Under the pieces are notes generated by a model. The model searched no databases. It saw only the letters and a list, made by a program, of their open reading frames with translations, and had not been told where the DNA came from. DNA of 32,000 nucleotides from Chlamydiales bacterium. Lineage in GTDB: Bacteria > Chlamydiota > Chlamydiia > Chlamydiales > JAAKFR01. Made by a program: the position numbers and the translations under genes. The stretch is from the NCBI GenBank assembly GCA_041395025.1, contig JAWLBH010000001.1, forward strand, positions 1,020,001-1,052,000. The letters run 5' to 3'. Numbering within the stretch: position 1 is the first letter of the stretch; every line of letters starts with the position of its first letter. This document shows positions 8,533 to 10,133 of this stretch, in pieces.

Positions 8533-9090
8533 ATGTCGAATATTAGTCAATATCATCCTTTCTATCCTGAGAAAGCTTTCACTCATTTATCAACTAAAAA
8601 TTCTAATCAAGAAGGACCTCACATCAGCCATTCTTTTGGATTTTATTGTTCTCAATCTTCCTTTGATTCTTCTCCTTGGAAAATCAACCAGTATAGTTCT
8701 GGAGCAGCAAAAATTGGATTCATGTTTATCCAGATAGCTGGTTATATTCCTATTATCTCAATATTAGGAGGGATATTAAGGATTTATGCTTGCTGTAGTA
8801 AGAATGGACTCCAGAAAGGAGAGGCGAGTGTTCCATTAGGTTTTAGGGTGGTTAATGTGATTCGTGGAGTCTTAGAAATTCTACAGCTGGGGCCATTGTT
8901 TCTTATTCCAGATCTGATTGTAACACTCGCTCGATATGTTGTGAGTCATAGAAATCAGCCTCAGAAGAGGTTACATCAGCTGATTTCAAGAATCTCTGCT
9001 CAGGAGATCCGAAAAAGTCGATACTCACGTCAACTCAATCCCTACTACGAAAATTACCAAAAATACATAGATAAAGTATTGAAGAGATGA
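8533..9090 (+). CDS. Small membrane protein, tandem paralog 1 (unrecognised family)
   Basis: 185 aa. It shares with the next two ORFs the island GY(I/V/L)PI(I/F)S(I/V)(L/I).GI and the near-invariant block VIRGVLEILQLG.LFLIPDLIVT..RY. It also has a basic C-terminal tail not present in the other two. Confidence 0.7.
   Translation: MSNISQYHPFYPEKAFTHLSTKNSNQEGPHISHSFGFYCSQSSFDSSPWKINQYSSGAAKIGFMFIQIAGYIPIISILGGILRIYACCSKNGLQKGEASVPLGFRVVNVIRGVLEILQLGPLFLIPDLIVTLARYVVSHRNQPQKRLHQLISRISAQEIRKSRYSRQLNPYYENYQKYIDKVLKR
8860..8940 (+). repeat. Conserved 3' block of the paralog family, copy 1
   Basis: ATTCGTGGAGTCTTAGAAATTCTACAGCTGGGGCCATTGTTTCTTATTCCAGATCTGATTGTAACACTCGCTCGATAT. By hand alignment, 8 mismatches in ~77 nt versus copy 2. 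Confidence 0.85.
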
Positions 9091-9154
9091 TAAAATTACT
9101 TTTTTTCTATTTCTAGATCATTTAAAATATTTATTTTATTAAATAAGAAGACTC

Positions 9155-9550
9155 ATGTCTGGAATCAGTGACTGTTTTGGTTTTTATCCTAAAGATGCAT
9201 TTTTTTCCTCTTCGCATTGGAATAGATCGATATCTGAGGTTAAGGAAGATGATAAGAAAGTGCTCGAAAAATGGTGCAGAGGACGCCTTGTTTTTGGCTA
9301 TGTTCCCATTTTTTCAGTCATATCAGGTATCACAAGAATTTCTTCTATGTCCTTTTACCAGAAGGCACCTTTAGGTTTTAGAGTCGTCAATGTCATTCGT
9401 GGAGTGTTAGAGATTCTACAGCTCGGGTTATTGTTTCTTATTCCAGATCTGATTGTGACCTTCGCTCGATATCTGAGTCATAAGGAAGATGGAGAAGGAC
9501 TTGGCCAGTTCGAAAGTAAGATAGAGCAATATCGGTATTTGAGATCTTAA
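9155..9550 (+). CDS. Small membrane protein, tandem paralog 2
   Basis: 131 aa. N-terminus is MSGISDCFGFYPKDAF. It carries the conserved GYVPIFSVISGI and VIRGVLEILQLGLLFLIPDLIVTFARY blocks. Confidence 0.7.
   Translation: MSGISDCFGFYPKDAFFSSSHWNRSISEVKEDDKKVLEKWCRGRLVFGYVPIFSVISGITRISSMSFYQKAPLGFRVVNVIRGVLEILQLGLLFLIPDLIVTFARYLSHKEDGEGLGQFESKIEQYRYLRS
9395..9485 (+). repeat. Conserved 3' block of the paralog family, copy 2
   Basis: By hand alignment, 9 mismatches in 88 nt versus copy 3 (10005-10095). The central parts of the genes are barely alignable. Confidence 0.85.
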
Positions 9551-9724
9551 CTTTACAGATAGATAGAGGGATTCTTTGTACAGTTCATAAAGGTGATGGT
9601 AGACGACTTCTGTGTCGTTATTCAGAAAAAAATCTTAGAATGTTAATTTCTTTTAATTTGTATCCATTAGACATTATTCCAAAAAAAAATTTTCTAGATT
9701 TAACTTTCAAAAAATCTAATACTA

Positions 9725-9771
9725 ACATAACCTCTCTTATTTGATTTTAAATCAAATAAGAGAGGTTATGT
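9725..9771 (+). promoter_or_regulatory. Perfect 23-bp inverted repeat (1-nt spacer) covering the SD and start codon of paralog 3
   Basis: ACATAACCTCTCTTATTTGATTT (9725-9747), t, AAATCAAATAAGAGAGGTTATGT (9749-9771). The right arm contains GAGAGG (9760-9765) and ATG (9768-9770). The left arm supplies the complementary CCTCTC. Confidence 0.8.
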
Positions 9772-10133
9772 CTGCAATTAGTGATTGTTTTGGTTTTTAT
9801 CCTAGCAATACATATTATCTGTCTTCTTCATGGAGATTACTATATCGCCTTCAACCAGGAATTTTTCACATACAAGCGTTTAATTTTGTTCGATTTTTGG
9901 GCTACCTCCCTATTTTTTCTATCCTAGCAGGTATAAGTAAATTTCGTACTCTTAATGCCTTAAATCAGCGAGATGTCTCTTTAAGTTTTAGATGTATCAG
10001 CGTGATTCGTGGGGTGTTAGAGATTCTACAACTCGGGTTACTGTTTCTTATTCCAGATCTTATCGTGACCCTGGGTCGATATCTGAGTTATAGGAATCAA
10101 GCGCAAGGGAATTACCCTAGATCCGCTTCTTAG
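9768..10133 (+). CDS. Small membrane protein, tandem paralog 3
   Basis: 121 aa from ATG 9768 (MSAISDCFGFYP...). This matches the N-terminus of paralog 2 with 3 mismatches in the first 37 nt. The track's TTG 9741 start lies inside the palindrome and is not supported by the paralogs. Confidence 0.7.
   Translation: MSAISDCFGFYPSNTYYLSSSWRLLYRLQPGIFHIQAFNFVRFLGYLPIFSILAGISKFRTLNALNQRDVSLSFRCISVIRGVLEILQLGLLFLIPDLIVTLGRYLSYRNQAQGNYPRSAS
10005..10095 (+). repeat. Conserved 3' block of the paralog family, copy 3
   Basis: ATTCGTGGGGTGTTAGAGATTCTACAACTCGGGTTACTGTTTCTTATTCCAGATCTTATCGTGACCCTGGGTCGATATCTGAGTTATA. Confidence 0.85.

Follow-up and report, generated by a model that had tools for sequence, protein, structure and literature searches.

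Small Alpha-Helical Proteins with a Conserved, Charged Core Form a Multi-Copy Family Restricted to Chlamydiae

Introduction

What do three small genes encode that lie head to tail directly downstream of a glycosyltransferase (GT) cluster in a Chlamydiales genome, and does the cluster account for them? We addressed this question in a 32,000-nt stretch of DNA (assembly GCA_041395025.1, contig JAWLBH010000001.1, positions 1,020,001 to 1,052,000, forward strand; hereafter the window). An initial annotation, made from the letters alone, had described the genes as a tandem triplet encoding an unrecognized family of small membrane proteins, reminiscent of chlamydial Inc (inclusion membrane) proteins yet not classical ones, and had raised a functional link to the GTs. 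We find that the three genes are tandem paralogs and belong to a multi-copy family, restricted to Chlamydiae, that encodes small alpha-helical proteins. The family is best described as Inc-like proteins with a conserved, charged, amphipathic core. That its members are atypical Inc-like, host-facing membrane proteins is the reading we tentatively favor, at somewhat less than even confidence.

Results

The Triplet Consists of Tandem Paralogs

ORF calls and alignment bore out the layout first described: three same-strand, head-to-tail open reading frames (ORFs) of 185, 131, and 121 aa (locus tags R3E91_04785/90/95), with ATG-to-ATG distances of 622 and 613 nt. The genes, and the DNA encoding the conserved block within each, are as follows (HMM, hidden Markov model).

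8533..9090, + strand: copy 1, 185 aa; family HMM E 7e-36; N-terminal motif (N-motif) twice, then the GYIPIISILGGIL island, the conserved block, and the longest C-terminal tail
9155..9550, + strand: copy 2, 131 aa; family HMM E 3e-36; reference for residue numbering and structure models
9768..10133, + strand: copy 3, 121 aa from ATG 9768; family HMM E 1.6e-35
8834..8947, + strand: conserved-block DNA of copy 1, encoding LGFRVVNVIRGVLEILQLGPLFLIPDLIVTLARY; 82% identity to copy 2
9369..9482, + strand: conserved-block DNA of copy 2, encoding helices 73-87 and 91-112 and holding R82, E86, G91, P97, D98, and R105
9979..10092, + strand: conserved-block DNA of copy 3; 85% identity to copy 2

The third ORF is open from a TTG at 9741 (130 aa in a mechanical ORF call); we set its start at ATG 9768 because the N terminus of the paralogs, MS.ISDCFGFYP, is reproduced there. 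All three elements that had been reported as shared are present in the paralog alignment, namely the N-motif, a GY(I/V/L)PI(I/F)S island, and a block that reads (F)R(V/C)(V/I)(N/S)VIRGVLEILQLG.LFLIPDLIVT..RY. The portion VIRGVLEILQLG.LFLIPDLIVT..RY differs at just one position among the three copies. The near-identical block comprises 34 residues and, at the DNA level, forms a 114-nt direct repeat with 82-85% nucleotide identity; the N-terminal element common to the copies is FGF(Y/H). Similarity among the copies is far above chance, as each matches the family HMM at E ~1e-35.

In copy 1, the N-motif is doubled, 29 residues apart. The first occurrence, at residues 1-12 (MSNISQYHPFYP), is degenerate and lacks the Gly that is at least 90% conserved elsewhere; the second, at residues 31-39 (ISHSFGFYC), is better and is the one that MAFFT aligns. 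Window positions 8533-8650 span residues 1-39. Copy 1 is an exception to the family rule, which places the motif at residues ~7-14.

The Family Is Restricted to Environmental Chlamydiae

An exhaustive profile search over 1.84 billion representatives recovered 269 family representatives at E<=1e-3, 18 of them at E<=1e-10. The named sources were exclusively environmental chlamydiae: Neochlamydia sp. AcF65/84/95 and Parachlamydiaceae, Waddliaceae, Chlamydiae, and Chlamydiales metagenome-assembled genomes (MAGs). The others were unnamed metagenome contigs. Scanning species-representative genomes gave matches in Chlamydiae MAGs alone, and searches of viral contigs and of plasmids returned no family member. 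Since no Chlamydia species name occurs among the sources of the relatives, the family seems to be absent from Chlamydiaceae at this search sensitivity.

As first reported, the family is not one that is recognized. Every source-named relative in three indexed searches was annotated as "hypothetical". The three proteins had no match in Pfam, NCBIfam, or PADLOC, and the best PHROGs match, for one copy, had an E of 0.043. A profile search of the PDB returned only a spurious ribosomal S12 match (E at least 0.13). In Foldseek searches, neither structure model had a PDB match at E below 4.7 and BFVD yielded nothing at E below 0.99, and the family motif string was absent from the indexed literature searched. 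Profile searches assigned no known domain to the block, and we found no database family, structure, or paper that describes the family. We also rejected a phage, holin, defense, or plasmid origin, given the PHROGs result, the lack of anything relevant in PADLOC, and the negative searches of viral contigs, plasmids, and BFVD.

The Core Is under Purifying Selection

We estimated dN/dS (nonsynonymous to synonymous substitution rates) between the copies by the Nei-Gojobori method, setting the 34-codon block against the remaining aligned codons. In the block, dN was 0.03-0.11 and dS 0.45-1.0, a dN/dS of 0.07-0.2, whereas in the flanks dN was 0.9-1.0, no lower than dS, and dS was saturated. Low dN in the block and high dN in the flanks indicate that the core is under strong purifying selection and that linker and tail evolve about neutrally. 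Third-position identity, which we looked at for gene conversion, was 59-77% in the block versus 33-45% in the flanks; as the flanks are poorly alignable, the difference is uninformative.

The three ORFs are thus real, selected genes. The alternative, that they are chance ORFs in AT-rich repeated DNA and do not code for protein, could appeal to the low local GC content (33% at 8001-10000, compared with ~38% for the window as a whole) and to the fact that the products are hypothetical proteins without database annotation. Against this stand the dN/dS of the block, the 269 homologous representatives with a spacing of 47-57 residues between YIP and IPD, and a core that AlphaFold2 predicts with confidence. 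Because of this pattern of conservation we consider the idea refuted, with a probability that is practically nil.

Copies per genome range from 1 to at least 6, and tandem arrays are recurrent: three copies in the window, five at locus L001/L018, and two at L013/L015, with single copies elsewhere. At L001 (positions 2313-5424; Chlamydiae MAG JABDCQ010000060, same contig as L018), the five same-strand copies lie downstream of genes for an ABC-2 permease and an efflux outer-membrane factor. Part of the fifth copy is a stretch of masked or unknown bases, and its N-terminal half is duplicated; a sixth copy of the same MAG is on another contig (L002).

A Fixed Core Lies between Variable Parts

We counted the anatomy of the family in 186 sequences. 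The N-motif, as [F/L]-G-[F/Y/W] within the first 40 residues, occurs in 144 of 186 by a stricter pattern and in 163 of 181 when the pattern is relaxed slightly. The median position of the motif is near residue 10, and its extended logo is x-I-S-x-(P/D)-A-F-G-(F/Y)-(H/E)-(T/S). The linker that follows is variable (11-85 aa, median 35). The conserved core spans ~75 aa, with a constant GYIP-to-IPD distance of 47-57 residues, and the C-terminal tail past IPD is mostly ~25 aa, at times up to 470 aa. In a 37-sequence alignment (copy 2 numbering), Y49, P51, G91, D98, and R105 are invariant and G9, R82, E86, L93, I96, and P97 are present in at least 90% of sequences. D98 is still invariant among 149 sequences, in which conservation is at least 90% at G9, Y49, P51, R82, E86, and G91.

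The first 25 residues are enriched in Ser (1.6-fold), Thr (1.5-fold), and Asn and depleted in Leu, Ile, Lys, and Arg, and the N terminus has no hydrophobic (Sec) signal peptide. A Ser/Thr/Asn-rich, Leu/Lys/Arg-poor composition is that reported for type III secretion (T3S) signals, with which the family is consistent, although composition is not diagnostic.

Some relatives are larger. Five proteins contain two complete modules; in one of them, P0020, each module has its own FGYHS motif, and the protein is encoded by one intact ORF in two assemblies (L024, 4001-4756; L025, 1453-2208). In P0063 (L023, 1498-2370), the module is followed by a linker of Tyr/Thr/Pro repeats and then by a weak J-like domain, which has an HPD motif but falls short of the Pfam cut-off (DnaJ E 1e-4); P0066, of 572 aa, has a C-terminal extension. 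The remaining long tails are rich in Pro, Ser, and Lys, with no domain found.

The 10 residues past the ...IPDLIVT..R helix, after the second hydrophobic lobe, contain at least one Cys in 48 of 124 members (39%), compared with ~17% expected from a family Cys content of 1.9%. Examples, among proteins P0004-P0201, are RHFCA, RYLCKSC, RMCCMC, and EKCCCG; the window copies have Ser or Val instead. The enrichment could mark a juxtamembrane lipidation, metal, or disulfide site.

The Core Is Modeled as Three Amphipathic, Marginally Hydrophobic Helices

AlphaFold2, run on copy 2 as a monomer with 149 aligned sequences, gave helices at residues 31-47, 51-67, 73-87, 91-112, and 117-130, with a mean pLDDT (predicted local distance difference test) of 81 and ~90 across residues 50-110. 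A shallower alignment yielded the same helices at lower confidence. The core corresponds to the three confident helices (51-67, 73-87, and 91-112). The "30-residue block" of the initial annotation is near-invariant, as stated, but is modeled as two helices, 73-87 and 91-112, broken at Q89-G91. Polar residues line one face: one helix contributes R76, N79, R82, E86, and Q89, and the next contributes D98, T102, R105, and H109.

The two hydrophobic stretches had been taken to suggest a membrane hairpin. On the Kyte-Doolittle scale this remains plausible: 19-residue means are 1.5-2.05 for both lobes, near the usual threshold for transmembrane (TM) segments, and over ~60 aa the profile has two lobes. 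The Hessa biological scale, in contrast, makes both lobes marginal, and the helices are amphipathic. The gap between the lobes is 5 residues in the AlphaFold2 model (helix 51-67 to helix 73-87) and ~12-24 residues by hydropathy. Given the two-module fusions, each module would have to cross the membrane an even number of times (0 or 2), which fits a hairpin or a peripheral module, not three TM passes. Two-module and C-terminally extended proteins likewise appear to fit a module whose two ends lie on one side of the membrane.

Several observations weigh against an Inc-like membrane protein. Hessa scores, used as a position-independent sum, are +2.7 to +5.5 kcal/mol for the lobes of the window copies, with family medians of +5.1 and +4.8. 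Controls encoded in the window gave -0.4 to +1.9 kcal/mol (ORF 2119-3096, eight lobes), -0.7 and +0.3 kcal/mol (ORF 753-1337), -0.8 kcal/mol (YajC), and -1.9 to +4.3 kcal/mol (TM helices of an MFS transporter). The hydrophobic moment is 0.40 for helix 51-67 and 0.50 for helix 73-87, compared with 0.10-0.15 in these TM controls. The inter-lobe segment is charged, with means of 3.8 Lys plus Arg and 1.8 Asp plus Glu over 124 members (R61, K70, and R76 in copy 2). Because the loop and both flanks all carry charges, the positive-inside rule is uninformative and the flanks give no clear topology. Core and N-motif are, moreover, strongly conserved. Finally, the N-motif can be internal, as at residues 31-39 of copy 1 and in the second module of P0020, and is therefore not simply an N-terminal export signal.

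Some of the same data could mean that the core is not embedded in a membrane at all. It would then form a compact bundle of helices, soluble or peripheral, that has internal salt bridges and a hydrophobic core, acting in the bacterium or, once exported, in the host cytosol. Hessa values of +3 to +5.5 kcal/mol per lobe and the high hydrophobic moments are in line with such a bundle, as is the confident packing of helices 51-67, 73-87, and 91-112 as a monomer, and the i/i+4 and i/i+7 spacing of the charged residues is consistent with salt bridges. However, 19-residue Kyte-Doolittle means of ~2.0 are rare in soluble proteins, the core consensus LGLG.LFLIPDLIV is very apolar, and Foldseek returned no soluble fold match. 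We regard a soluble or peripheral bundle as improbable.

The Family Has No Conserved Gene Neighbor

The triplet does lie directly downstream of the GT cluster and on the same strand, as had been stated. Domain matches at 3229-8332 correspond to five GT-type proteins, including GT4, CDP-glycerol glycerophosphotransferase-like, GT2, and Glyco_trans_1_2 members. The cluster and copy 1 are separated by a spacer of 200 nt (8333-8532), which is nearly pure A+T, has imperfect inverted repeats at 8427-8486, and contains one further feature.

8467..8495, + strand: promoter-like site, TTGACT, 17-nt spacer, TATAAT; 11 of 12 consensus matches; its end is 38 nt upstream of the copy 1 ATG

With a promoter-like site inside the spacer, the triplet need not be co-transcribed with the GT genes.

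To survey neighbors, we fetched 25 loci of relatives (about 17 independent, 238 kb). None of 20 window proteins, among them all of the GTs and a tetratricopeptide repeat (TPR) protein, has a homolog in any of these loci, and no locus has an adjacent GT. The sole GT seen was a GT2 in L011, 4.7 kb and six genes away. Neighbors vary from locus to locus: hemH and a solute-binding protein (SBP) gene in L002 and L005, a choline-kinase/APH-like gene in L002 and L011/L012, nqrB-E in L007, a transposase gene in L006, genes for a penicillin-binding protein (PBP) and an NDP-sugar epimerase in L008, and an MFS transporter gene in L024.

These results bear on the proposal that the triplet works with the upstream cluster, its products being glycosylation acceptors, membrane anchors, or small flippase-like partners. 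Position and strand speak for it, and one might add the relative 4.7 kb from a GT2 in L011 and the relative near NDP-sugar enzymes in L008. Yet 0 of the 25 loci contains a homolog of a window GT, and the genes immediately next to relatives elsewhere are hemH, SBP, nqr, MFS, transposase, PBP, and efflux genes. The L011 relative is separated from its GT2 by six genes, copy 1 is preceded by its own promoter-like site in the 200-nt spacer, and Pfam and NCBIfam searches gave no match to GtrA, a flippase, or any other GT-partner family. The neighborhood survey thus largely refutes the link, which we now hold to be highly improbable.

Some neighbors are common to relatives but not to the window. Ferrochelatase and SBP_bac_3 genes occur in both L002 (~6800-10100) and L005 (3954-6498), and the choline-kinase/APH-like gene is common to L002 and L011 (8001-10253)/L012 (3580-5832). 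This suggests orthologous positions in a subset of lineages.

The family could also be read in another way: as non-secreted proteins of the chlamydial cell envelope. The core would lie in the bacterial inner membrane, with the R/E/D/R stripe in an oligomeric ion-conducting bundle or in an accessory or regulatory subunit of a membrane complex. In an Inc anchor, a strongly conserved charged helix face would be less typical than in a working membrane module, and one relative (L007) lies directly after nqrB-E. A membrane module with a C-terminal J-domain, the layout suggested by P0063, is also that of bacterial DjlA. There is, in addition, a noise-level likeness to helices of the MotA, TolQ, and ExbB type, which we retain as no more than a weak pointer: Pfam MotA_ExbB was matched by 3 of 149 members at E of at least 0.09, and Foldseek listed ExbB, MotA, and TolQ at E 5-10, so that these signals are statistically insignificant. 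Moreover, 1 to at least 6 copies per genome, arrays, and near-neutral tails would be unusual for a subunit of core machinery, no gene neighbor is conserved, and the helices are marginal for Sec-type insertion. On balance we consider an envelope role somewhat unlikely.

Other Features of the Window

The rest of the window has chlamydial gene content, including Hc1 (13089-13469), YajC, HtpG, an NqrF-like protein, heme-synthesis genes, Mfd, and AlaRS; the source is an NCBI MAG ("Chlamydiales bacterium"), in which the triplet lies on a contig of 1.32 Mb. A 921-aa TPR protein is encoded on the opposite strand, downstream of the triplet. In the GT cluster, two pairs of adjacent ORF calls overlap: 3229-4401 and 4337-5356 (TTG start) by 65 nt, and 6550-7344 and 7235-8332 by 110 nt. 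The downstream gene of each pair probably begins later than called, for example at MKIDFLV within 7235-8332.

Two ORFs on the other side of the cluster, 753-1337 (+) and 2119-3096 (+), match no Pfam family and have classical Inc-type hydropathy. The product of ORF 2119-3096 (325 aa) has an internal duplication, four long bilobed apolar stretches, and a Ser/Pro-rich N terminus; that of ORF 753-1337 has two apolar helices with ~20 aa between them. Judged by sequence, the GT cluster is flanked on both sides by candidate inclusion-membrane proteins.

The start of copy 3 lies within a palindrome.

9725..9771, no strand assigned: perfect palindrome, 23+23 nt with a 1-nt spacer; the right arm is the 5' untranslated region (5'UTR), ribosome-binding site (RBS; GAGAGG), and ATG of copy 3

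As RNA, the palindrome has a predicted folding energy of -34.5 kcal/mol (z -8.3; z -10.7 in a comparison of family gene starts), with arms that are 100% complementary. Its right arm is homologous to the 5'UTR of copy 2 and its left arm is an inverted duplication of the right. Such an RNA would sequester the RBS and start codon of copy 3. We ruled out the palindrome as a family feature, since of the 35 family gene starts tested only that of copy 3 has it. It may serve in translational control, or may be a rearrangement scar or an assembly artifact.

Discussion

We tentatively favor the interpretation that the family consists of atypical Inc-like, host-facing membrane proteins. Each protein is built of four parts: a Ser/Thr/aromatic-rich N terminus with the motif, a variable linker, a three-helix core with a charged stripe (R82, E86, D98, and R105), and a fast-evolving C-terminal tail. 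The proteins would be exported by the chlamydial type III system and, like Inc proteins, reside in the inclusion membrane or a host membrane. The core would serve as a module for membrane association and probably self-association; it would enter as a hairpin and cross the membrane an even number of times. Linker, tail, and in some relatives the added domains (J-like) would then face the host cytosol.

Phylum restriction, the lack of a Sec signal, a Ser/Thr/Asn-rich N terminus, variable copy number, tandem arrays, near-neutral tails, the lack of conserved neighbors, and add-on domains all argue for this interpretation; these are features of chlamydial host-interaction genes. The bilobal Kyte-Doolittle profile and the confidently helical core are in line with it as well. 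That two classical bilobed Inc-like ORFs share the window points the same way. We can also envisage a more specific version, in which the N-motif, F-G-(F/Y)-(H/E)-(T/S), is an export or chaperone-docking signal of a new type III-exported class whose core oligomerizes into a pore or scaffold of the inclusion membrane in amoeba-associated chlamydiae. We regard this version as a long shot.

Environmental chlamydiae have many orphan putative Incs and almost none in recognizable families; in Protochlamydia amoebophila, 68 of 76 putative Incs are orphans (PMC3048545). The present family can be detected by sequence. With 269 representatives, fixed motifs and spacing, multiple copies, and a conserved core with fast tails, it is therefore tractable. 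A single HMM suffices to chart it throughout the phylum, Neochlamydia in Acanthamoeba is a cultured carrier (homolog NEOC65_001910), and the four conserved charged residues are targets for mutagenesis. If the proteins are secreted, then an Inc-like anchor need not be a generic hydrophobic hairpin and can instead be a conserved functional module; if they belong to the bacterial membrane, they would be a chlamydia-specific envelope component. Should the exported class be real, it would be the first motif-defined family of chlamydial T3S substrates and a candidate route by which ions or metabolites pass through the inclusion membrane. Either way, the family deserves a name, although it is one among many lineage-specific hypothetical families in chlamydial MAGs.

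How does the family compare with known systems? A likeness to DUF4112, small membrane proteins with G-x-I-P-x-x-G-D, is superficial (GYIPIIG versus GLIPGIGD), and we rejected this assignment: the divergent two-module protein P0124 matched at E 6e-4 and 20.4 bits, compared with a cut-off of 23.3, one of 37 members matched at E 0.14, and the match did not recur among 149. ORFs 753-1337 and 2119-3096 have the neighborhood and the lack of a Pfam family in common with the triplet. They differ in that their lobes are uniformly apolar (Hessa -0.7 to +1.9 kcal/mol; hydrophobic moment ~0.1), and they have no similarity to the triplet.

Inc proteins are defined operationally by two TM helices of 15-32 residues that are <30 residues apart, together with an N-terminal T3S signal, and their bilobed hydrophobic domain spans 40-60 residues (PMC3048545). 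Known Inc loops are 3-22 residues long (15-22 in IncB and IncC) and contain no charged residues (PMC3048545). Inc loops tend to be rich in Pro, Gly, Asn, Ser, and Thr and to lack Lys, Arg, Asp, and Glu, which is a tendency rather than a strict criterion. Incs are described as sharing little or no primary sequence (PMC6925127; PMC3656976), and CT147, CT288, and CT850 are Incs with two hairpin modules (PMC3048545). Like Incs, and especially the long-loop IncB and IncC, our family is Chlamydiae-restricted, lacks a Sec signal, and has two lobes within ~60 aa and <30 aa apart; its members are small, with variable flanks, often clustered or tandem genes, and a few two-module proteins. In contrast to Incs, its lobes are much less hydrophobic and are amphipathic, its inter-lobe segment is charged, and in 186 members its core and N-motif are strongly conserved, with R, E, D, and R that are invariant or nearly so. 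The description as Inc-reminiscent yet non-classical therefore holds: the spacing is that of Incs, the hydrophobicity of the helices is borderline, and the composition of the loop runs contrary to the Inc tendency.

No IncA Pfam domain was found in the three copies, and no Pfam family, IncA included, was found in more than 3 of 149 relatives scanned. Even so, the closest described parallel is with the TMH/Inc loci of C. psittaci and C. abortus, which are tandem and fast-evolving, with near-neutral evolution (PMC3323650). The TMH/Inc proteins (transmembrane-head, IncA-domain; C. psittaci, abortus, and felis) are tandem paralogs with a conserved paired-helix "head", a rapidly diverging remainder, and near-neutral dN/dS (PMC3323650), features that resemble those of the triplet and its relatives. 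They differ in having long coiled coils where our family has short tails (median ~25 aa after IPD), and our family occurs in environmental chlamydiae.

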